The position numbers and the translations under genes were made by a program. The notes below the pieces were generated by a model. It saw nothing but the letters and a program-made list of their open reading frames with translations, was not told the origin of the DNA and made no database searches. From contig CAVNZM010000012.1 of the NCBI GenBank assembly GCA_963693365.1, positions 4,144,409 through 4,208,408 of the forward strand: a DNA stretch of 64,000 nt. The letters run 5' to 3'. The stretch's first letter is position 1. Every line of letters begins with the position of its first letter. Origin of the DNA: Amoebidium appalachense (taxonomy: Eukaryota > Protista > Ichthyosporea). Positions 2,123 through 63,569 of the stretch are shown here, in pieces.

Positions 2123-2459
2123 ACGCACACGCACACGCACACACACACACCCACACACCCCCAATACGTACATACAACAGTCTGTGTTCGACAATCGCAG
2201 CGCATGGATGCACACTTACACGTAACAATATTGGTTTGATATTTGTCGCACACTAAGTGACGAGCAAGTCATAGATGATGGGTGCATCTTTTTTCCTCTG
2301 GGCCTGGGCCTGGGAGTAGACACTGATACGGCAATACTTAACAAAAAGATGTTCATTTCAATGTTTCCTGTTGCCAGGACATGCCAAACATGCATGAAAT
2401 TTGATAATACGTATACTGTCAGGCCTAGGGCTGCCCACTGGGGAGGGGTATAGACTCCG

Positions 2460-2652
2460 GAATTTGATAACGAACAGCACAACGCAGATCACACAAAATA
2501 GAATACGAAATTCATAACAGACAACACTTTGCAGATCACACATTACCACACATAAACAGTGTGCATCATGAGCCCATTCTTGGGGTTTGGTGCTATTTGG
2601 GGGGGGGGGGAGGCGGGTCATGACAAAGACTAGTACCCCAGTTTCGATCCCA

Positions 2653-3948: not shown

Positions 3949-4472
3949 TACCTCTGCCCAGTTGACGACATACCACCAGCTTGAGATGTAGTCGGGGCGC
4001 CTGTTCTGGTAGTTGAGGTAGTAGGCATGCTCCCATACGTCCAGGCAGAGAATCGGCGTGTGACCAACCTGCAACATGCATAATTGTTCAGCTAATGTGG
4101 TTAGAAATTGGGAGAAACGAGGGGACGAATTGTGTTGTGATTAATGAGAGGTGCCATGGCGCCCATAGCTGGCACTTCTTAGAACTTAGGCTGGAATAAG
4201 TTTCTAGGAAAATGAAAACATGGGTGGGCAGAAAACCAGTAGGGTTACTAAACATGTAAGGAGGATGTGAGGAGGTGGTGGTAGCGATTGTAATAATTTT
4301 GGTACCGAGGGGACGTTGGGGGGGAGGGGGGGGGGAGGGGGGATGATCAAGAGGAAGGCAGTGGGGGGAGCGATTGGGGCGAGAGGGGGGGGGGTGTATA
4401 TGCATACCATTAACAAGACAGGTACATGCACGTAGCAAGCATATAGGAGACGAGGGGAAATGAAGGCGGTGG

Positions 4473-4506
<34 letters not shown>

Positions 4507-5257
4507 GAATGCGTCATTAAGTACGAAGTGCACATGAACAACGGATAACACGATGCAGAATGCAAACCATACATAAAGAGTATGCATAATAAGCAGAGCC
4601 CATCCTCAGGGGGGGCCTACATCATCCGGGGGCCGGGGGGGGGGGGGGGGGGGGGGGGGATAGGATCGTATTTTTTTCGGGGCGGAGGGGGGGGGGGGGG
4701 GGGGGGGATCGCTTTTTTCTTTTTTTTTTTTTTTTTTTTTTGTGGGGGGGGGGGGGGGGGGGGGGTATGATTACGGTCATGGCAGGGGTATCCTGGTTCG
4801 GTGTGGTGGTGATTTTGAGGCGTGGGGGGTCCTGGTTGCTGTCGAGATACAGCCACACCCAGCCAGACCCAAACAGACCCGCCGCCTGCTTGGAGAACTC
4901 GGACACAAATTTGTCGTAGCCCCCAAACTCATCATGGAGGGCATCGTGTAGTGCCCCCTGTAAACAATAAGAGGTAATAAGAGGTTAGATGTTTTCCTTT
5001 CTCTCCTTTTTTTTTTTTTGTGTGTGTGTGTGTGTGTGGAAGGGGGGGGGGGAGAAGGGGGGGGGGGGGGGGGGGGAGGGGGGTCGCCCTCTGGCATAAA
5101 ATGTTCTGTCCTCGGAGACATTTTTTCCTTCGTCTTTTTCCCTGATCGACTTGTTCTGTGTTACGAGAACCTTGATCGGAACGGCCGGACGCGTTTGAAT
5201 TAGTGTGTTTACACGTGTGTCATGTGTAATGTGTCCATGTACATGTTTGTGTGCCGT

Positions 5258-5304
<47 letters not shown>

Positions 5305-5559
5305 CAACGGGTGTTTGTGTGGGTTGGTGCATGGCCGTGTTGGTAATTGTGGATGTGTGTGTGTGTGTGTGTTTGCGCGCGCGCACGCGCACGTGCGTGC
5401 GTGTGTTTGTGTGTGTTTGCATGTGTGTGATAATCGTGGTGGTGGTGTGGCCGACCTTTTCTTTTGGGTTGCGGGGACATACCCACTCGACACACACTCC
5501 ATGCACTTACCCAAAAGTCATCCACTAACGAAAGAGTTCATGTATTTTAAAGGAAAAAA

Positions 5560-5596
<37 letters not shown>

Positions 5597-5642
5597 TGTA
5601 TTGCATAGGGTGGCAAACATGGAAGTTGAAACTTAGAGACGG

Positions 5643-5684
<42 letters not shown>

Positions 5685-5977
5685 AAAAACACAAAACACA
5701 CACACCCAAAAATAAGACAATTTTGCCGGACGTAAAAAAACACTTGAACAGAGCCCGGGGGGGGCTCCCTTGCCCCCACAAAAGAATAGTTTTAACCCTT
5801 TAACCTCTTGTGTGTGGTTTCCACCCCATCCTCTGCTTGGTCAATAATGGGTAAGTCAACCCGTCGTGGCGGTGTTGATATTTTCCCTTTCTCTCTCTCT
5901 CTCTCTCCCCCTCCCCCCCCCCCCCTCTCTCTCTCTTTTTATTTTATTTATTTATTTTTATTTATTTTTATTTTATT

Positions 5978-6008
<31 letters not shown>

Positions 6009-6529
6009 GGGCAATACCTTAACTAGTGTGCTTGGACCGCCGTGTGGGCTCATGATTTTCCAAAAGAGGTCGTGGTTGACATATCCACCACCACTGCATT
6101 GAGACACGTGGTCAGGGGGAAAATATGGCCAACATATTGCTTAATTAAGGTTAATGATATATAAATGGAGATGTGGCTATGAGTGTGCTATCCCAAAAAA
6201 AAAAATCATTTTTCTGGAGAGGATAAGCTGTAAGCAAGAGGAATGGAAAACAAGAATGGACTACGTGGTGACAAAGATGAATTCGAATTTTTCAGGAATC
6301 AAGGACACAGAGTAACTAGCAATGAGGGCATGCAGATAAAAAAATAAACAGATAGGGATGGGTGTTGGGGATGGGAAAGGAGACCAGGGGAGAAGGAGAA
6401 AAAAGGGGGAACGAGGGGGGAGGGGGAAGGAGGAGGGGGAGGGGGGGCAAGCGCATGATGTAAACGGAACTGGGAGGGTGGGGGAGGCGGGCCGGAGCGC
6501 ACGAGGCTCAAGGGGCAGGCAACGGGGAA

Positions 6530-6569
<40 letters not shown>

Positions 6570-7759
6570 GGGGGGAGGGGGGGAGGCGGGGAGGGGGGGG
6601 GAGCACACGTCGACTTACTGATTTCTCAGTGTTACGCGATGAGGCTCAGGAACATCAGCTAGGCGCGTGAGAAGCGTATCAATGCCCAGCTTGGCAAGGT
6701 GTTTGTGTTTAGGGTCCTCACGCAGTGCAGCAAGGGCTGCATTTGCCTTGTCTGTGTATGCTTGGTGGTGCTTGAGATGGTGTGTCCGCATCGTGGCTTC
6801 GTCGATGTAGGGTTCAAGTGCATTATACTCGTAGGGCTGTGTATAGCAATGAGGTGCAAGAGCAGCAGGGAGGAAGAGTGGGGGGAAGGGAGAGGGGTGG
6901 AGGAGAGCAGGGGCGGAGGGGCGGCAGGGGAAGAAGGGGGGGCCGGGGGGGGGGGGGGGGGGGGGGGGGGGCAGGTGGTGGGTTTAGTGTACGGTGAGGC
7001 CTCCACCATTAAGGGGAAGGAGGGCCAGGCAAGGAAGAAGAAATGGTTGAAAGAGGAGGAAGTGGGCTAGGGAGGGGGGGGGGGGGGGGGGGGGGGGGAG
7101 GATCCGGTAAAGAAAGAGGGAGGGAAAAGGGAAAAGTTGCGTCTTGAAGAGAAATAGAAAGCCCCAATGCAAAAAGGTCAAGAGCAAACAGAGCAAACAT
7201 CAGGCAGGGTGTATTCGAGAGCGCGTACAGGGCTAGCCATAAAAAATCTTACACAGTAGCATACAGGCGTGCAAAAACAAGGATGCAAGCGCAGAAACTC
7301 CCATGCAAGCACATAAACTCCCTGTTGTGAGAGTAGGGAAGGTGCACAAAAAGGCAGCAGTGCGCAGGTTAAGCTGTGGCTTTCTACCTTGTGGTGCAAT
7401 GGTCTTCCACTCACTCCCCAACTGTTAGGCAAACCGTCTTTTCGCAACCCCCGTTCTTTCCCTTATCCCATCCTTGCATCCCCTCCTCCCCCATGCCTCC
7501 CTCCTCTTTGCCCCCGCCCAACCCCACCTCTCCCTCCTCCTCCCTCCCCCCCCCCCCCCCCCCCCTCCGCCGACCTTTCCTCCCCTAAACCCTACCCTTC
7601 CCTCCCTCCCTCCCCCTGGCAAGCCCGCAAAACACTTAACGTATTTCCTAGATCCACTTTCTTTAAATATGCTCCACTTACCAGTGGGGGCAAAGGCAGG
7701 TTTTGTCCGAAGGCCACAAAGGCAAGCGCAGCGATCAGCAATGGCCTAAGAAAAGCCAT
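3078..7759 (-). CDS. Fe/Mn superoxide dismutase (Mn-type signatures), 245 aa, N-terminal signal peptide and C-terminal KVEL
   Basis: Exons 7759-7682, 6836-6619, 6093-6018, 4957-4775, 4068-3952, 3143-3078, all GT-AG and in phase. Reads [53 protein letters not shown]...[13 protein letters not shown]...FGSGWVWL...NQD...DVWEHAYY...[24 protein letters not shown]. All four metal ligands are present. Confidence 0.95.
4505..4630 (-). mobile_element. 3' fragment of the Penelope-like repeat (subfamily A) in an SOD intron
   Basis: Closely matches 48291-48400 and the reverse complement of 63396-63518; runs cccCTGAGGATGGGCTCTG...gacgcattcaa then poly-C. Confidence 0.85.
5690..5770 (-). mobile_element. 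Degenerate fragment of repeat subfamily B
   Basis: Minus strand ccccGGGCTCTGTTCAAGTGT is shared with the copies at 54215 and 55543. Confidence 0.45.
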
Positions 7760-14098: not shown

Positions 14099-14653
14099 TT
14101 AAGCGACGAGCTTCTGGCTGTGGGAGCTGCGCATGTGGTGGGCCATGACCAGAAAGATGGAGAAGAAGGCGAGGATGGTGCCGACAATGTTGATGATGTA
14201 GGCGGGGCCCATGGGCAGGCCGTAGGGGGCCGACCAACCGTAGTGGGCGGACATGGTCAGGCAAGTGGCCATGACCAGCACAAACTGCACAAACGCACAC
14301 AGCGCCACCACGGGCCCCGACACCGGCAGGCAGCAGCCGCACGTCATCAGCGTCAGCACCAGCAGCACCAGCGCAGCCACGCCGGCCAGGAAGGCCACCA
14401 GCATCATGCCGGCCATGGCCTTCTCGGTCGAGTCCATCAGCGCGTCCCACTCAAAGCTCGTGCACACCGCAATGCCGCCCAGTGTCCACGAGCTGGTGCA
14501 GCCCGACGGGATGCCGACGCCGAGCGTTGTGGTCACGCCGCCGACGGTGGTCTCGCCGTAGTACCAGTTCATGCTGACGAGGCCGTAGATGGCTGAAATG
14601 GTGCTGAACAGCATGAACACAAAGGCGAGACCGGCAGCAAGGAATCGGCACCT
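14099..14653 (-). CDS. Claudin/PMP22-superfamily-like four-TM protein, copy 1 (start codon reads AGG; next ATG at 14614)
   Basis: Colinear over 555 nt with 15481-16035, with 4 amino-acid differences; aaaATGtgccga in the paralog reads aaaAGGtgccga here. Confidence 0.8.
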   Translation of the reverse strand, partial: RCRFLAAGLAFVFMLFSTISAIYGLVSMNWYYGETTVGGVTTTLGVGIPSGCTSSWTLGGIAVCTSFEWDALMDSTEKAMAGMMLVAFLAGVAALVLLVLTLMTCGCCLPVSGPVVALCAFVQFVLVMATCLTMSAHYGWSAPYGLPMGPAYIINIVGTILAFFSIFLVMAHHMRSSHSQKLVA

Positions 14654-14834
14654 TTTCTTGGTTTGACTAGGACGAAAGAAGTATGCTAATTTTTTTGTTG
14701 TTGTTACGTTAAAGTTGCCCCGAATTTTTCACGTCAGTTAATGTCTAACTTATTGTAGATTCGGTACGCCTACTGCAGATGAATTGTGTCAATGATATGG
14801 TGTTTGAATGTGCCTGGAGTGACCACAGCATCGC

Positions 14835-15270: not shown

Positions 15271-15480
15271 CTAGACAGGATCGCGGAACTTGAATCATTT
15301 CAAATTACACTTCCATCATCACTGGTACACATTTCCAATCAACCTTTTTCCGGTACTGTACTAGGTAGCTAATAATAAAAGAAGAACGGCTTCGAATACT
15401 TCCAGCCAACTGCAACTGATAAGCTTAGCTACACACACTATTACTTACTTCAGTGCCCATACAACAAACGTACGTCGAAA

Positions 15481-16035
15481 ATGTGCCGATTCCTTGCTGC
15501 CGGCCTCGCATTTGTGTTCATGCTGTTCAGCACCATTTCAGCCATCTACGGCCTCGTCAGCATGAACTGGTACTACGGCGAGACCACTGTCGGCGGCGTG
15601 ACCACAACGCTCGGCGTCGGCATCCCGTCGGGCTGCACCAGCTCGTGGACGCTGGGCGGCATTGCGGTGTGCACGAATTTTGAGTGGGACGCGCTGATGG
15701 ACTCGGCCGAGAAGGCCATGGCCGGCATGATGCTGGTGGCCTTCCTGGCCGGCGTGGCCGCGCTGGTGCTGCTCGTGCTGACGCTGATGACGTGTGGTTG
15801 CTGCCTGCCGGTGTCGGGACCCGTGGTGGCACTGTGTGCGTTTGTGCAGTTTGTTCTGGTCATGGCCACGTGCCTGACCATGTCCGCCAACTACGGCTGG
15901 TCGGCCCCCTACGGCCTGCCCATGGGCCCCGCCTACATCATCAACATTGTCGGCACCATCCTCGCCTTCTTTTCCATCTTCCTGGTCATGGCCCACCACA
16001 TGCGCAGCTCCCAAAGCCAGAAGCTCGTCGCTTAA
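15481..16035 (+). CDS. Claudin/PMP22-superfamily-like four-TM protein, 184 aa, intronless, copy 2
   Basis: Four hydrophobic segments; first loop has W...GxxxGC...C, resembling the W-GLW-C-C signature; CGCC after TM2; GPAY before TM4; strong GC3 bias. Confidence 0.88.
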   Translation: MCRFLAAGLAFVFMLFSTISAIYGLVSMNWYYGETTVGGVTTTLGVGIPSGCTSSWTLGGIAVCTNFEWDALMDSAEKAMAGMMLVAFLAGVAALVLLVLTLMTCGCCLPVSGPVVALCAFVQFVLVMATCLTMSANYGWSAPYGLPMGPAYIINIVGTILAFFSIFLVMAHHMRSSQSQKLVA

Positions 16036-22400: not shown

Positions 22401-22540
22401 CAACGTTTGTGATGTGACCAACACAGCTTCTTATCTTAGCTCACAGCTTCACTAATACTAGCAAGTTGCATGCTCAACCAACAATCGATTATCATCGAAG
22501 CCATATAGGTATTCGAAAACTGAAAGTCAGACTCTCGATC

Positions 22541-25306
22541 ATGAGACAGTTATACGTAATCGCGGCCGCATCGGCCTTGGCAGCAGGAGCGCCCACGTGT
22601 ACCACCACGTGTCGTGCCGTGCTAGGAAACGCGCTCAACATTGGGGATGCATGGTGCAGCAGCAACTATGAGGTCAACCACCAGGCGGAGAGCTGCATTG
22701 CCCCGTACTGCGAGCTGGTGAACTCTTGCGCAAGCACGTCGGCTCAACCAACCACAACAACAGCTGCTCCTTCTACCACCACCACCACCAAAACTACCAC
22801 AACAACAACGACCACAAAAGCGCCAACGACCACCACCTCACAAACCACCACCTCCCCGAAACCCACCACCACCACTACCACCACCACCACGTCAGTAGCA
22901 CCAGGGCAATGTCTGGCCGAATACGCCCAATGTTCAGGCCAGGGGTTCACAACACCACTTTCGTGCTGTCCGGGCACTGTTTGTGTAGTTCAGAGCCAAT
23001 GGTGGGGTTCATGCCAGAAGGGCACCCAGTCATCTACGGCTGTGACCACCACTAATACCGTCCCACCAACCACCACAACCGCGTCCCGCACCACCACTAC
23101 CACCACCGTTACCACACAAAGTACCACCTCACGACCCACCACCACCAATATTTTCACCACCACCACAACAACAACAACACGGGTGCCAACCACCACCCCT
23201 GTAACCACCACACCCGTTCCTACCACCACCACCACACCTACCTCCACCTACACGCACGAGAAATGCCGGCCTGATGGTCTTTACCGCACACCGGGCCTGG
23301 ACGTTCCCTACTGCACCCGCTACGACGAGACTGGGCGGGAGAAGATGGGTGCCGACCACTCACGGCGCATCATTGGCTACTTCACGTCATGGCGGACGGG
23401 GGCCAACGGCCAGCCGGCCTACCTCGTCAATCAATTGCCGTGGGGCAAGATCACACACGTCAACTATGCATTTGCACATATTGGCAGCGACTACACAGTG
23501 AGCATTGGCAACACCGCAGACCCAAACAACACCGCCGTCGGCGCCATGTGGCCCGGTGTGGACGTGGATCCTTTTTTGGGCTTCCGCGGGCATTTGGGTG
23601 CCCTCGCTACGTACAAGAAACGGTTTGGTGTCTCCACACTCGTTTCGATTGGTGGGTGGGCTGAGACCGGTGGGCACTTTGACGACAACGGCAATCGGGT
23701 GGCTGATGGGGGCTACTACAAACTCACCACAAACTCTGACGGCTCGCCGAACCTCGCTGCCATCAACAGGTTTGCGCGGTCATGTGCCGAGTTTTTGCGC
23801 AAGTATCAGATGGACGGCATCGACATTGACTACGAGTACCCCACGTCCATGAAGGACGCAGGCAACCCCGACGACTTCTCCGTGAGCAACCCTGCGCGTG
23901 CGTACCTGTTCAAGAACTACATGGTGCTCATGCGCACCCTCAGGGAGCAACTGGACGCTACGGGTGTTGCTGACGGCAAGCACTATCTCCTCTCCATTGC
24001 GTCCCCGTCCTCGGGCTATCTCCTTCGCGGCATGGAGGCCATGCAGGTGGTGCAGTACCTCGACTATGTCAACCTGATGACTTATGACCTGCACGGCGCA
24101 TGGAACGAGTATGTGGGCCACAACGCACCCCTCTACGACACGGGCAAGGACGCAGAGCTGATCGCGTGGGGCGCCTACGGCGGGCAGTACAAGGGCATCG
24201 GCTATCTCAATTCTGATTGGTCCTACCACTACTTCCGCGGCGCCATGCCTGCCGGCCGCATCAACATTGGCGTGCCATACTACACCCGAGGTTGGCAGGG
24301 CGTCACCGGGGGCACCAATGGGCTGTGGGGCACTGCCGCACTCACCGACTTGTCGAAATGCCCTGCCGGCACCACCAAGTGCGGCAACGGGGCCATGGGC
24401 ATCGACAATATCTGGCACGATGTGGATGCCAATGGTAACGAGATGGGCGCTGGCTCCAACCCCATGTGGCATGCCAAGAATCTGCAGGCGGGGGTCTATG
24501 GCTCTTACCTCACATCCTACGGGTTCAACGCGAGCGGTACCCTCACAGGCACCTATGCTCGGAATTACGACCACGTCGCCGTGGCCCCGTGGCTGTGGAA
24601 CGACCAGAAGAAGACTTTCATCTCGACGGAGGACGCAGAGTCAATCAAGGCCAAGGTCGACTACGTAATTTCAAAGGGCGTGGGGGGGCTCATGATCTGG
24701 GAGATGGCCGGCGACTATTCGTGCTACAAGAAGGACACGGCCGGTAGGCGCACCAACGTTGTTGATTCGTCCGAGTCTGCATGTGCCACCGGGCAGGGAG
24801 AGTACTTCATCGGCGACACCCTCACCTCCATCATGTACGACGGTTTTAAGGCCGCAGCCCCCTATGGCAACACAATCTCAAACATTGCGATCCCGGCCAA
24901 GGCGGCTGCGATTGAATTTTCTGTGGGCGAGTTTGCGCTGGGGGACAACAACTACCCAATCAGCCCCAAGGCCACCATCACCAATCGGATGACGGTTTCT
25001 ATCCCAGCCAATAGCCAGGTTGCATTTTCCTACGGCACAAGCGCACCCGACAACATGGTGGATTGGTCCGGCGCGGGCCTCAAAGTCGTCGAGTCAGGCA
25101 ACCCCGTTAGCAACAATGTTGGGGGGCTTAAGGGTGACTTCAATCGGGTGACGTTTAAGATCCCGTCAGAACTTGCCCCCGGCGCAAGCACGGTGGTGCA
25201 GCTGGTCTACTATCTTCCCATGACGGGGCCTTCTGATTGGCGGTTTAATATTAACGGCACGTGGTATGCTGCGGCACAGGAGCAGCCCAACCTTCCACGC
25301 CTGTAA
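22541..25306 (+). CDS. Secreted GH18 chitinase, 921 aa, intronless: signal peptide, Cys module, Thr linker, CBM1, Thr linker, GH18, ChiC-type C-terminal domain
   Basis: [17 protein letters not shown] leader; CBM1-like [35 protein letters not shown]; GH18 motifs [36 protein letters not shown]; C-terminal [13 protein letters not shown]. Confidence 0.96.
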
Positions 25307-28283: not shown

Positions 28284-41507
<13,224 letters not shown>

Positions 41508-43786: not shown

Positions 43787-44269
43787 TCGTACGTAGCTGT
43801 GGTCGTAGCCCTCCTGCAGGCGCAGGGCAACAGGGAAGCCAACCTCAGAGGCGGCAGCAACGAAATTCTCCGGCAGAAGCTGCTGCTCAACATAAAACTT
43901 GTCCCCCTTGCCCTGTGTGTGTGTGTGTGTGTGTGTGTTGTGGTGGTGGTAGTGTAGGGGGGGGATTTTTTTGTGTGTGTGTGTGGGGGGGGGGGGGGGG
44001 GGGGTGATGGATTAGAGGATTGGCAACCCATCATGCAAAAACTCGAAACACATACATAAAAACACCCCGGGGGGAGGGGGGGGGGGGGGGGAGGGGGTGG
44101 GGGTCAGTCAACGACATTTACCAGATTATGTCTTTAAGTGAGTACACGTTGGGAAAAAATATTGTGAATGAGCTCAGTGTAGGCTATGAGTCGGAGGCCC
44201 GCCGACTCGGAGCGTAACCGACTGTGTGCTTGAAGAAACGAGTGCGAGGTTGACCGGGGGACAGGAGAA

Positions 44270-44330
<61 letters not shown>

Positions 44331-44533
44331 ATGCATCATAAGAGTACAAAGTGCACATTCATGACGGACAACACAATGCAAAGTGCGATTAAAGCACACA
44401 TAGAGAGTATGCAACATACGCAGAGCCCGTTCTCAGGGGAGAGCTTCGACCCATTCAGCTCGTCGACGAGAACCAACTCAGATACTGCTTCACTTCACGG
44501 GTGAGTCGGTGGGTAGGTTGGTGGGTGGGGGGG

Positions 44534-44628
<95 letters not shown>

Positions 44629-45234
44629 GGGGGAGGCGGGGCCGGGGGGTTGGGGGGGGGGGGGAGGGGGTGGTTAGTACCTGGTCAATCAGCACGTCGA
44701 GTGGTGGGCCGGGGTACTTCTTGACCAAAAATGTGGCATCATAATCCTGCAACGGAGACAAAACTTAATGTTTAGTTAAACCCGTGGGGGGATTAAGTGC
44801 GCAGCCATAGGAGGTGAAGTGAGGCTGTTCTTTTATCGATGGGGGCGGGGAAGGGGGGGGGGGGGGGGGGGGGGGAGGATTCACCACAACATTTGATAGC
44901 TTTTGTCAGCCGCAACTGCAACTGCAATCTCAACAGCCCCCCCCCCCCCCCTCTCCCTCTCTCTTTTCCCTACGAATAGGGAAAAGAGAGAGGGAGGGGG
45001 AGGGGGGGGGAGGGGGGGAGTGGGAGGAGAGGTGAAGGAGGAGGGGGGTTTGATTGCAATACAGAGTACGAAGTACACAATGACGGCAGACAACATAATG
45101 CAGGTATTGACAAAAAGAAAGAAAGAGAATAAAAGCTCAAGAAAACAAGCAGACAAAGAAAGGAGCCGACAAGGGAACTCATACAAGACATCGTGGTATC
45201 ATGACTAGAGCCCATCCTCAGTAGGGGAGAAGGC

Positions 45235-45265
<31 letters not shown>

Positions 45266-45509
45266 ATAATAGCAAGAGCAACAAACTACATTTAATTTGA
45301 TTAGTCTACACCTGCCACTACAAATACAACAACGGCAACACCTGCAGTATCCGGCAAAAAATCCAACAAATAATCATCGGAAAAACACAGATTCTAAAAA
45401 CAAAACCCTACCTCCCACTGGCCGTTGTCTGGGCCGAGGTACCCGGTAAAGGCTAATTGGCCCCAAGGACAGTTGGTCGGGTTGCAGATGGGCGCAAACG
45501 CAGACACGG

Positions 45510-45577
<68 letters not shown>

Positions 45578-45629
45578 AAAAAATACACATCCACCAAGTC
45601 CAGCCCCCCCCATCCCCTTCCGCGGAAAA

Positions 45630-45728
<99 letters not shown>

Positions 45729-47254
45729 CAACAACAACAACAACAAAAAAGACAGAGAAAAGCAAACAAAGAAAGTGAACAAAAACAATCCACGTTCCGT
45801 TCATTATAAAAACATAACAGAAGACCTAACCACCACAACCTCCCCCCTCCTCCCCCCCCCCCCCCCCCCCCTGTCTCTCTCTTGGCGTCTGGTATTCCAG
45901 AGCTGTGTGCACCCACGTGTCTCGTTTATTTTTGGTGTGTGGTATTGTAAGGGGGGGGGGGGGGGGGGTGTGTTTGAATGCGGTACACGGTACGAAGTAC
46001 ACATACACGATGAGAAGCATGGTGCAGGACACATGCAAAGGCAAACATTCAAGTATGCAACATCAGCCATGCGCACAGTATGCGTCATAAGCAGAGCCCA
46101 TCCTCGGGGAGGGCCCAAGTCATCCATTGCGTCTGAGTTTCGACCCCTTAGCCCGCGTATAAACGACGCACCAACTCAGACAGCAGCATCAACTGAAGTT
46201 GGGAGGGTCAACCAGTCTTGATCAAAGACGATCAGGGTTGCTTATGCAAGCAAAGTGAGCTAAACGGTGAAGATGTGTGTGCAAGCTAATGCAGTGCAGC
46301 AAAAAATGTGTATGTGCTACATATGCACGACACAGAGCAACCATGCCCGGTTGCATGGAAGTAAAGCGGTCTCCACGCAGTGGTCTGTCCTGAAAGGACA
46401 CCTCTAAGAGAAGACTTGGGGGGGGGTTAATGCGGAACACGGTACGAAGTACGCATACACGATGAGAAGCATGGTGCAGGACACATGCAAAGGCAAACGC
46501 TCAAGTATGCAACATCAGCCATGCGCACAGTATGCGTCATAAGCAGAGCCCATCCCCAGGGGGGGCCCAAGTCATCCATTACGATTGAGTTTCGGCCCCT
46601 TAGCCCGCGTATATACGACGCTCCAACTCAGACAGCAGCATCAACTCAACTTGGGAGGGTCAACCCGGGGGGCGGTTTGACTAATTGCTACCCGCGCATG
46701 AACTATAATTTTGTTTTCTAAGCTCCAAACACATGCACATAATGCCTCCGAGCCAAATAAATCCCTATTCCCCCCTCCCACAACTAACACCATTAGCATC
46801 CACTTCCTTATATGGTTCGAAACATCGATAATCCATTCGCTGATTCAGAGGGGGGTAGCGTATGCACAAGGGGGAGCAGTTATTTACCGACCTTGTATTG
46901 ACCTGGGTTCTTGAGTGCGCAGATCAGAGCACCGTGACCACCCATGCTGAAAATAAGTGTCAGTATTGAGCCTCCCCCCCCCCCCCCCCCCCCCTATACA
47001 AAAAAAAAAAGACAAAAAGAGACGAAGACACAGCCGTGGGAAGAAAAACACAGAAATGCATGCATAATAACATTCAATGCCACACTCAAACCTCCTTCCC
47101 CCCTCCCACCCACCCACGGTGGGGGGGTCACCTTGCCCTTGGCTGCCTGTACCATCAAAAGCCTGCGGAAGAGGGGGGGGAGGGGGGGGGGCTGCAAAGC
47201 ACATTTGTTCCCCCATTCGCAGTCTTGTTACGCACAGCTAAAGGGGTAAATGTG

Positions 47255-47294
<40 letters not shown>

Positions 47295-47299
47295 GTTTG

Positions 47300-47336
<37 letters not shown>

Positions 47337-47445
47337 GGGGGAGGGGGTGGTGGTGGAGGGTTTCACACCACGAACAAAGACTCACGGTATAATACAATGA
47401 TGAGTTCTATTTATAATACGATGATAAGTTCTATTTTTTTTTTTG

Positions 47446-47483
<38 letters not shown>

Positions 47484-48614
47484 CACTGTGGAGTATGCAA
47501 AACGAGGGAAATTCATCCTCAGTTTGATCCCCAGGGGGGGGGGGGGGGGGGAGGGGGGTAATTCATCGAGGGGTTGGAACTGGAGGTTGAGAATTATAAA
47601 TGGTGAACAAAGGGAGGGAGGGAGGGATGGGGGGAGGTGGGGGGGGGGAAGGGGTTCATGTAAAACCTGTGGCCGAAGATTGAGGTTGCGTCCTTGACGG
47701 TGTTGAATGAGGAATGGACCAGCTCATGCAGCTCTTTGGTGATGTAACTGTACATGTTGTAGTGTGTGGACCACTTGGGCTCAGTGGCATCAACATAGAA
47801 CCCGGCACCTAATGAAAATAAAAAGGAAAAGGGGGCAAGGGGCAAGATGGAATAAAATGGAAAAAGAGAGGAGAGAGGGCAAAAGAAAGGTGAGAACCCT
47901 GCATCAATTTATAAAGATGAGAAAACAGGAAAAAGGCAAGAAAAATGAAAAAAGAAAGAAGAAAAAACGGGGAAAGAAGAATAGGTAGGAATAAATGAAG
48001 GGAAATGAAACCGGAAGCAGAACGAATTGAGAATAGGTGGTTTTTAATTTTTATTTTATCTGTTTGTTTATTCAATATTTTATTCTATTCTATTTTTTGG
48101 CGGGGGGACGGGGGGAGAGGAGGTATCAGGTGTATGATTCGAAATCACGTCTGTGCCATATTAAAATACATGTTTGCATGTGCAGGAGGAGATTGTTATT
48201 TGCTTTCGCAAGGGTGAATCCCTGACAGAACAAAGACTTTGTAAATAGGAGGAGAGCCTATCTTCCCTCGGGGGGGAGGGGGGGGGGGGGGTTGAATGCG
48301 TCATAAAGTACGAAGTACACGAGAACAACGGATAACGATGCAGAATGCAAACCATACATAAGGAGTATGCATAATAAGCAGAGCCCATCCTCAGGAGGGG
48401 GAGGGGGGGGGAGGGGGGGGGGTGTGGCAACAACCGTACTCGGAAATCAACCCAGTCATCTCAGGCACACGCTCAGCTCGTAACCACAAGTAGGGTCGCA
48501 TATGCTGACAGCTAAGCACAAAAGCAGAGGGAATGCATTCGTTTGATTATTTATTTCTATTTTTCTTTCTATATATATATATATATATATATTGGGGGGG
48601 GGGGGGGGGGGGGT

Positions 48615-48698
<84 letters not shown>

Positions 48699-48836
48699 GA
48701 AGGGGAACGGGGGGAGGGGGGGGGGGGAGGGGGGATTTAAAATGAACTTACCGCTGCCGAAGTCCCAAGAGTCATCCTCGCCGTCAATGTTGGTGGCCCC
48801 TGCATAAATGGGCAAGATAACAAACCAATGAGCAGT

Positions 48837-48870
<34 letters not shown>

Positions 48871-49585
48871 ATGAGAGGACAAGGAGAGGCAGAGGGCAAA
48901 ACCAAAATCCCCCCCCCCCCCAAAAAAAAATTTTTTTTTGACCGATTGTCTTCCCCATCTCTCATAAACATATACCCCAGATAAAGATTTGTTTAGATGC
49001 CCTTTGAGTCCAACTTACGTGGGCTGGTGTCGGGGGCGACAATTATTAGACCCTCCTCGGAGGCGGGCTTGAAAGCATGGGCCTTGGTTACGAAATTCTG
49101 ATCCGTACACGTGAGACCTGCAAGGGGGGGGGGGGGGGGGGGGGGGGGGACACAGGCACGTGTGCGCACGTGGATGTGAGGGGTTGAGGGGAGGGAGGGG
49201 GAAGAAGTGAGGGAGGACGAGATGGAGTCTGGGGGGGGGGAGAAGGGGCATTGGAAGGGAAGAGAGGGGGGATTTGGGGGGGGGGGGGGGTGGAATACAC
49301 CACACACAACATACATGGAATACTTAGTCGACATTCCAACCAGAGATTGGTTTGTACCCTCATTGGGTCAACTGTATAGACTCGAACATTGCCTACTGGA
49401 TGCGCATAGCAGAATGCATATGGATGGGTTCAATAGGAGGGATTTGGTGTAGGTCTTCAGGCGGTCTCATGGGACCCACTCCAATTAACTGCAAACCGAA
49501 AAATGTCGTGTTTTACATGGTTTCTATAAAAATCTATATACATATACATATATGACACACACACACACACAGATATATCTTGATT

Positions 49586-52262: not shown

Positions 52263-62537
<10,275 letters not shown>

Positions 62538-62750
62538 GTACGGTGTCTTTTTTTTTCCCTCCGTGCTCTCACTTGATGTATTCTTGCCCCTTACACCTCT
62601 CGCTCATGTACACAATATGGACACAAGTGCTCAATCACTCTCTCGCCGGCTTTATCGCTCTCTCGCCCCTTCCCTCTCCGTCTCTCTCTCACTCACACAC
62701 ACACACTCTCCCTCTCTCTCTCTCTCTCTCTCACTCACTCACTCACTCAC

Positions 62751-62781
<31 letters not shown>

Positions 62782-62884
62782 ATCTGTCCACTTCTGCATA
62801 CCCCCTCTCATAGCTATAGACACACTTCACACATTGCGTTACGCGCACGCATGCACACACCGCTCTGTTGGCGACAGCTCCCTT

Positions 62885-63518
62885 GGAACCCATGCGGCAT
62901 GTTACCCGCCGGCGTAACATAACTCGGACTATCGGTTTGGCTTTTTTCAAGCCCAAAGCAATGGGTGATACCATATTTCCGGGCTGACATCCGGGGGCAT
63001 AGCTTTCCGTTCGAAGACGTTAAAGTTCTGCCCTAGTAAGCGTGTTACTACCCTGCGGCGTGGGTCAAATCTCATATTTTCCCCTCTGATTGAGAATTCT
63101 GCGGCCTTCGGGACTTAATTCTTTTTAGCTGGTGTAGTATGTTAGCCAGGGAAGTATCGACTTAGGTAGTGACGTGGGAGCTTCCCAGAAGCCCCGTCTC
63201 CTGAGTTCGTATCTATATTTTTCTTGCTTCTGCTTACTGCTGCAACCTTAACCCCCGGCCATTCCCACTGCCCTTGCCTGCATAAGCAACCCTGCTCGTC
63301 TCTGATCAAGACGGGTGACCTACCCATGTTCAAGTGAAACAGTATCTGAGTTGGGTTTCGTTAACGAGGTGAATAGGTCGAAACTCGGGTACTGTGGATG
63401 ATGGCCCCCCCCTGAGGATGGGCTCTGCTTATTATGCATACTCTTTATGTATGGCTTGTATTCTGCAACGTGTTATCCGTTTGTTCTTGTGTACTTCGTA
63501 CATTATGACGCATTTAAA
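62885..63518 (+). mobile_element. 5'-truncated Penelope-like retroelement: decayed GIY-YIG endonuclease C-terminal half plus structured 3' region
   Basis: Frameshifted peptides *HNSDYR, KAMGD(H), GHSFPFEDVKVL and SWCSML occur in the order of the PLE endonuclease pattern EHxxxxR...SALAEH...GHxFDFxNVKIL...W. 63270-63518 is homologous to the dispersed repeats and ends at poly-C. Confidence 0.65.
63339..63425 (+). ncRNA. Candidate non-circularly permuted hammerhead ribozyme
   Basis: acagtatctgaGTT ggg tttcgttaacgaggtgaata ggtc GAAAC tcgggtactgt ggatgatggcccc ccc CTGAGGA tg ggct; 13-bp stem III pairs 63339-63351 with 63383-63395. Confidence 0.5.
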
Positions 63519-63569
63519 CCCCCCCCCCCCCCGTCCTCCCCCCCGTCCTCTTTTCCTTTTGGGGGGGAG

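Follow-up and report, generated by a model that had tools for sequence, protein, structure and literature searches.

The window analysed here is a 64,000-nucleotide stretch of eukaryotic host DNA that is rich in introns and microsatellites. An intron-rich NDUFS1-like gene (Fer4_Nqo3) occupies 53200-62540 on the forward strand, and further intron-rich genes lie on the reverse strand at 4000-7000, 28400-36800 and 43800-49400. Protein searches with short NDUFS1-like exons returned no relative. As judged from exon translations, the products in the window presumably include an S-formylglutathione hydrolase, an Fe/Mn superoxide dismutase and an EGF/DOMON/cytochrome b561-like protein. An intronless chitinase ORF of 962 aa (CBM_1, GH18, ChiC) sits amid the intron-rich region at 22418-25306 on the forward strand, possibly through horizontal transfer, and an inverted duplicate (14099-14657 and 15477-16035; 96%, 559 bp) carries an intronless ORF for a four-helix membrane protein with no Pfam match.

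A high-copy repeat in the window

The window also holds a repeat family, of which 15 copies or fragments were recovered by a profile search at E<0.01. The copies discussed below are as follows.

62783..63518, + strand: subfamily A copy (63 kb copy) with C-run flanks, lying sense after an NDUFS1-like exon; 5' boundary placed by eye at the C run
30189..30585, - strand: subfamily B copy (30.3 kb copy) with the complete motif, G10.1 at 30433, U16.1 at 30398 and C3 at 30331; from descriptors and folding
45973..46416, - strand: subfamily B unit (46.1 kb copy), downstream member of a tandem, with private core and stem I mutations by comparison with sequencing runs
46427..46668, - strand: upstream tandem member (46.5 kb copy), 5'-truncated and pLTR-like, 452 nt in register
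44327..44507, - strand: truncated copy (44 kb copy) with a GACUCA/UGGGUC stem II and an internal deletion
4507..4627, - strand: 3' fragment from block C (the CUGANGA block) onward; profile search
48290-48400 (-), 45050-45222 (-), 59779-59938 (+) and 54205 (+): similar 3' fragments; profile search
55535 (+), 2455-2652 (-) and 5655-5869 (-): similar 3' fragments; profile search

The 3' ends of the repeat are common to the copies (GCAUUCAA followed by a C run) and the 5' ends are variable. A C run of at least six lies at the 5' edge in 11 of 12 copies, with edges placed by eye, compared with 5.7% of random windows. The 46.5 and 46.1 kb copies form a head-to-tail tandem in a 452-nt register. In sequencing run X1 the stretch between them has a summed depth of at least 10^5 versus 34-37 in the flank, summed contig depths not being copy numbers, and at the tandem junction the summed depth is high in both X1 and X6, with one X14 contig spanning it; the sustained depth and the spanning contig indicate that this stretch belongs to the unit. 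A 452-nt loop is closed by four overlapping contigs of X14, as it would be with tandem DNA, and the RNA nature of X14 is a guess. Matches to 366 bases were found in 6,054 X1 contigs and to 746 bases in 10,081, indicating a high-copy family. All runs compared with the motif consist of contigs, in which RNA ends are invisible.

Six-frame translation of 62783-63520 gave no long ORF, no RT/EN ORF was found tied to the window copies, and none of the window copies has its 5' end at the predicted cut site. None of the contigs of metatranscriptome X17 matched subfamily B, a result that does not prove its absence. A metagenome pattern scan returned 53 loci, 0 of 53 with a family profile match or a block C, and a viral pattern scan returned no matches.

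All 15 family matches share the orientation of the gene around them, with gene spans judged by eye from exon landmarks and one match perhaps beyond the last exon. Sense C runs number 79 versus 29 G runs, which accounts for only part of the strand bias.

Block order and core of the motif

From 63339 to 63418 the 63 kb copy reads, 5' to 3', cleavage site, GAAA and CUGAGGA, which is S-G-C in the block notation of Eckert et al. 2023 (PMC10085705). The first-pass annotation had claimed this succession, and it was confirmed on the forward strand: a stem III strand runs into GUU at 63339-63352, with GUU itself at 63350-63352, GAAAC lies at 63380-63384 and CUGAGGA at 63412-63418. Its description of a non-circularly permuted hammerhead core in a Penelope-like repeat was right; the C-G-S order without crossing stems that defines hammerhead types I-III is absent. 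The motif, in hammerhead numbering, is predicted to comprise the following parts.

63282..63293, +: helix X 5' strand (AUAAGCA, CCC, U); folding and alignment
63294..63316, +: hairpin Y, 8 bp, abutting G10.1; pair probabilities 0.82-0.93
63317..63322, +: probable stem II 10.x strand GACCUA, 5' of the cleavage site; six Watson-Crick pairs with 63374-63379
63323..63328, +: helix P 5' strand, counterpart of the I-II interaction helix of Eckert et al.; folding and majority letters
63339..63351, +: stem III 16.x strand, ending in U16.1; structure prediction
63352..63352, +: H17, a U, with predicted cleavage 3' of it; analogy with hammerhead numbering
63353..63355, +: stem I 1.x strand; pairing
63356..63369, +: linker hairpin with a self-complementary centre, the palindromic S-G linker, which has counterparts in the 30.3/46 kb and 44 kb copies; folding and copy comparison
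63374..63395, +: stem II 11.x strand, G12-A13-A14-A15.1 and stem III 15.x strand; pairing
63401..63404, +: helix P 3' strand, the helix having 4 bp here and 6 bp with the majority letters of the family
63409..63418, +: stem I 2.x strand and CUGAGGA core; pairing and run majority letters
63419..63432, +: helix X 3' strand, beginning directly after A9; folding and alignment

The core nucleotides CUGANGA, GAAA and NUH are all present in the 63 kb copy and are flanked by stems I, II and III, including the G10.1-C11.1 and A15.1-U16.1 pairs. Stem III comprises 13 pairs; stem I comprises three (GGG/CCC) and reads GGAG/CUCC in the 30.3 kb copy. The cut position proposed earlier, after U63352, is accepted as a prediction by analogy with hammerhead numbering. 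No differences of 5% or more are listed at core positions in four sequencing runs over the 63 kb copy.

Three descriptors were run on the window: the model of the first-pass annotation, one with an upstream stem II, and one with an upstream stem II plus X and Y. Each returned the same two complete copies (63 kb and 30.3 kb), and none returned a match in 300 dinucleotide shuffles of the window on both strands. Rfam gave no match to the motif at gathering thresholds; among the 150 of 158 matches listed at E<=1, most lie on simple repeats and none falls on a motif copy.

What had been said of the other copies calls for some correction. The words cu(u/a)AUGAUG, noted in subfamily B, stand in the 54.2 and 55.5 kb copies, both of which lack G5; this nucleotide is also mutated in the 59.8 kb fragment. 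The 44 kb copy carries the motif only in part: a deletion has taken the 3' strand of stem III, and the core reads CUGAGAA. The majority letters of the runs mend the private breaks of the 46.1 kb copy, restoring its mutated core U4 (99.7%) and an A at stem I position 1.3 (99%).

The stem II partner and the added helices

Stem II had been drawn downstream of the core, after a 2-nt UG insert following A9, and this placement is probably wrong. GACCUA at 63317-63322 forms six Watson-Crick pairs with UAGGUC at 63374-63379, and this upstream helix is 3.6-4.5 kcal/mol stronger than the downstream one, the duplex energies (kcal/mol) being -6.7 versus -2.2 for the 63 kb copy and -8.7 versus -5.1 for the 46.1 kb copy. 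Its strands vary to GACUCA/UGGGUC in the 44 kb copy and GACCCU/GGGGUC in the 46.1 kb copy; among five aligned window copies, two of its pairs are changed on both sides, compared with none in the downstream helix. GGGGCC, formerly cited as a supporting stem II variant, is private to one copy, the run majority at 11.2 being U (95%). The sixth stem II pair is missing in a subgroup of subfamily B. Four pairs are altered on both sides across the full structure in the five related copies, and the whole-structure level of covariation was reached in 3 of 500 shuffles for the upstream model (3-21 of 500 across its controls) and in 64 of 500 for the downstream model, figures that are not probabilities because the copies are related. 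The true stem II strand is therefore probably the upstream one, which breaks the A9-G10.1 link; an intact block C, with the 10.x strand at most 2 nt from A9, was not what was found. The supposed UG insert is better taken as the first nucleotides of helix X, which opens after A9 with a U-U, likewise in two sets of Naiad Penelope-like elements (PLEs). The predicted motif spans about 63280-63433, and so the fragment 63330-63435, earlier proposed for transcription in vitro, lacks the upstream stem II strand.

The earlier statement that changes between copies preserve pairing fails in stem I, which is only 3-4 bp long and whose pair 3 is broken in three of five copies. A C-to-T difference at 63409 occurs at 22-25%, roughly equal to the share of the subfamily B marker (18%). 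Helix P lies between the 10.x strand and the 2.x strand, the place of the I-II helix of Eckert et al.; 87.5% of its cells are paired, with no both-side change among window copies. Helices X and Y are invariant within the copies of this genome, and so support for them comes from the by-eye comparison with Naiads described below. At two Y positions, majority letters above 99% in run X1 mend private breaks.

When the strands of the pseudoknot are kept unpaired, the fold predicted for the 30.3 kb copy contains X, Y and P together with stem III and the linker hairpin. The minimum free energy of this copy lies below that of shuffles (z -2.2). The minimum free energy of the 63 kb copy is no better than that of shuffles (z -0.32), and its inner X pairs form at a probability of 0.03 against a rival GGCCC/GGGCU hairpin, which is probably favoured by the private helix P changes of that copy.

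At its centre the S-G linker is perfectly palindromic in each of three sequence versions (loops UUAA, AUAU and UCGA), and it may be a dimerisation element. Among the contigs of runs X1 and X4 that cover 63150-63515, one represents another subfamily, in which a deletion between the two strands of stem II has collapsed that stem and the stem III strand is different.

Relation to known hammerheads and Penelope-like elements

The earlier remark that jumbled hammerheads had been reported before was correct. In the accessible text of Eckert et al. (PMC10085705), type SGC was validated in vitro and found only in metatranscriptomes, and type CSG is known from two sequences, only in metagenomes. Blocks are assumed there not to be interruptible; A9-G10.1 is continuous in every alignment known to those authors, and inserts of 1-2 nt are known. 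Type SGC (HRIMA-1 and variants) resembles the window motif in its S-G-C order, its crossing stems I, II and III, the linker from a stem I strand to a stem II strand and the helix that connects the outer ends of stems I and II. The window motif differs in that block C appears split, with the 10.x strand 5' of block S and X and Y at the break, in its 18-nt linker hairpin compared with about 3 nt between S and G, and in its occurrence in eukaryotic chromosomal DNA. Type CSG shares the reversed cyclic order, but its opening lies between blocks G and C and that of the window motif at A9/G10.1. Circular permutation converts the split form into type CSG and back, and tandem repeats easily generate such permutations.

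According to the accessible text of Craig et al. 2021 (PMC8557442), Naiad and Chlamys PLEs show 5' truncation and partial tandems, and Chlamys targets (C)n/(CA)n; Naiads, described from animals only, prefer (TA)n or no repeat, and were reported without canonical hammerheads but with core or half-core motifs fitting no descriptor. The window repeat has these pLTR-like traits together with a microsatellite insertion bias. Further hallmarks of the group are an N-terminal GIY-YIG domain, a CxC motif and an RT with IFD, as well as a 'tail' extension of 30-40 bp and inverted 5' copies. The repeat resembles Naiad/Chlamys elements (e.g. the non-autonomous MRC1) in having 5'-truncated copies, tandems both partial and head-to-tail, flanks of (C)n, neither a poly(A) tail nor a canonical hammerhead, and a motif layout matching that of the Naiad 3'-UTR. 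It is unlike them in having no linked ORF, and its (C)n bias is a Chlamys trait, whereas its motif layout matches Naiads.

The supplement of Craig et al. was searched for four CUGANGA words and for GAAA words, and matches were judged by eye and not computed. The matches viewed were CTGATGA 1-10 and 21-62 of 62, CTGAGGA 25 of 25, CTGACGA 23 of 23 and CTGAAGA 1-39 of 43; motifs split by FASTA line ends were missed, so the Naiad counts are lower bounds. At least 10 of 54 Naiad consensi, from seven unrelated sequence sets, share by eye the split layout X5'-Y-II-P-III-NUH-I-II'-GAAA-III'-P'-I'-CUGANGA-X3' with different helix sequences. Those named by FASTA position are Bfor, Amil, Aacu, Anas, Obim and Ovul (ctenophore, corals, octopus); four more lie in parts 9, 12, 12 and 19, with uncertain names. 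Amil pairs GGCUCC-GGAGCC in stem II, UAGGAU-AUCCUA in stem I and GUAACUGU-ACAGUUGC in X; Obim pairs GACACC-GGUGUC, CUGCCC-GGGCAG and CCA-UGG, and the part 19 consensus GACGCC-GGCGUC, GGAAG-CUUCC and GGGG-CCCC, respectively. Aacu has one mismatch each in stems I and II, and Bfor has a stem I of 2 bp. In the split Naiads just 0-1 unpaired nt separate X, Y and G10.1 from each other, H17 is A or C, and the S-G linker is short (0-6 nt) and free of palindromes. Across the unrelated sets CUGANGA, GAAA and NUH are kept, with only N7 and H17 varying.

At least seven further Naiad consensi, those named being from nematodes, carry by eye an intact type CSG with a closing helix (Nbra-1, -2 and -3, two in part 13 and one each in parts 15 and 16), whose cyclic order equals that of the split form. 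Several spider, ostracod and squid Naiads have CUGANGA in structured 3' regions with no fit and were excluded from the counts. Among the motif matches viewed, no Chlamys consensus showed the reversed layout.

Canonical PLE type I hammerheads and non-LTR retrozymes likewise have the hammerhead within a PLE repeat or within a tandem unit that is non-coding, and the inner stem III GAGU-U/ACUC of the window motif also occurs in several Hydra/Penelope entries. Those hammerheads differ in their circular C-G-S order, tiny stem III and frequent need for dimers. Non-LTR retrozymes are described in the accessible part of bioRxiv 10.64898/2026.07.22.740005 as non-coding units in tandem that carry a type I hammerhead; the window repeat has the tandem non-coding unit and lacks the type I hammerhead. 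A circular RNA form is a further trait of retrozymes.

Taken on its sequence, the motif is best explained, with a probability of roughly two in three, as an S-G-C core with an upstream stem II and a four-way junction, likely self-cleaving and likely carried by a non-autonomous PLE of Naiad/Chlamys type. The same split layout is likely an overlooked ribozyme of Naiads. The continuous C11.1-G12 strand would let the core stack on stem II, and the continuous X5'-Y5' strand would let X stack on Y; the remaining two strands would exchange at A9/G10.1 in a four-way junction that keeps both nucleotides adjacent. Helix P would link stems I and II at their far ends, just as types SGC and CSG do. A cut after U63352 would free unit-length RNA from tandem or intronic read-through transcripts, and this RNA may circularise; such a release role follows proposals for PLE hammerheads in the accessible text of PMC4209133 and PMC6765202. 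The RT/endonuclease of a PLE, acting in trans, would prime at G runs facing the 3' C tract of the element and usually stop early; internal initiation is shown for another PLE in the accessible text of PMC11167929. On balance, an overlooked family of reverse-order Naiad hammerheads is also favoured, of ancient origin and present in several animal phyla and in this eukaryote, which would be self-cleaving and would explain the apparent hammerhead lack, with type CSG in nematodes and the split four-piece form elsewhere.

Assembly in trans, in which the next tandem copy, or a second RNA held through the linker, supplies X5', Y and the 10.x strand so that only multimers cut, is unlikely. It draws on the existence of tandem units, the palindromic linker centres and the often dimeric nature of PLE hammerheads (accessible text of PMC4209133), but one unit holds every strand in folding order, stem III is long and stable in the monomer, and the Naiad S-G linkers are 0-6 nt long and free of palindromes. 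There is a slim chance that the motif is a hammerhead-derived structure that does not cut, or cuts only with an element protein, and serves as a signal for RT binding or packaging. The preservation of CUGANGA, GAAA and NUH across unrelated Naiad sets and both window subfamilies argues against such a signal, whereas the unbroken A9-G10.1 of the alignments known to Eckert et al., the complete copies lying sense in host genes, the genomic tandems reading through the cleavage site and the poor cutting in vitro of many PLE hammerheads (accessible text of PMC4209133) are in its favour. An intact type SGC with a downstream stem II is quite improbable: its helix can be drawn in all five copies, 1-2 nt inserts are known and its descriptor is likewise absent from shuffles, but two of its four stem II pairs are G-U, the conserved GACC, X and Y are left without explanation, and a downstream partner is absent from the split Naiad consensi. 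That the repeat is decaying and its motifs are due to chance, or are boxes like those of box C/D snoRNAs, is an idea prompted by UGAUGA and CUGA words in subfamily B and a negligible prospect given the empty shuffles and the lack of an Rfam match at gathering thresholds.

The S-G-C order is known; the split of block C at A9/G10.1 and the occurrence in a eukaryotic retroelement repeat appear, on the letters, to be new. The literature covered, which leaves most subscription papers outside, holds no report of non-circular hammerheads in PLEs or eukaryotic chromosomes, nor of helices inserted at A9/G10.1, and the accessible parts of PMC3088659, PMC10162972, PMC544870, PMC13725137 and bioRxiv 10.64898/2026.07.22.740005 describe no such hammerheads. 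If the preferred split-block reading is true, non-circular hammerheads would shift from a few metatranscriptomic sequences to a widespread, high-copy retrotransposon clade of eukaryotes, the published assumption of an unsplittable CUGANGA block would be broken by a new topology, and the puzzle of Naiad 'HHR_core/half_core' motifs outside all descriptors would be answered. The split form, which current descriptors and Rfam overlook, would also offer a natural four-way-junction insertion point of interest to ribozyme engineering. Intact CSG and split forms within one clade would constitute a natural series for the origin of permutations in tandem repeats, with intact CSG in at least seven Naiad consensi compared with the two CSG sequences in the accessible published record. 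Hammerhead variants with additional helices are reportedly the subject of Weinberg 2015.

The box C/D snoRNA reading was rejected, since the C/D-like words fit a kink-turn between P and stem III and are not kept in subfamily A. In the 30.3 and 46 kb copies this interval contains a tandem G-A/A-G, a U-U and a 3-nt bulge, which we take to fit a kink-turn. The same pattern was seen by eye in the Octopus Naiad motif, and the kink-turn could bend the stem III arm back toward stem II.
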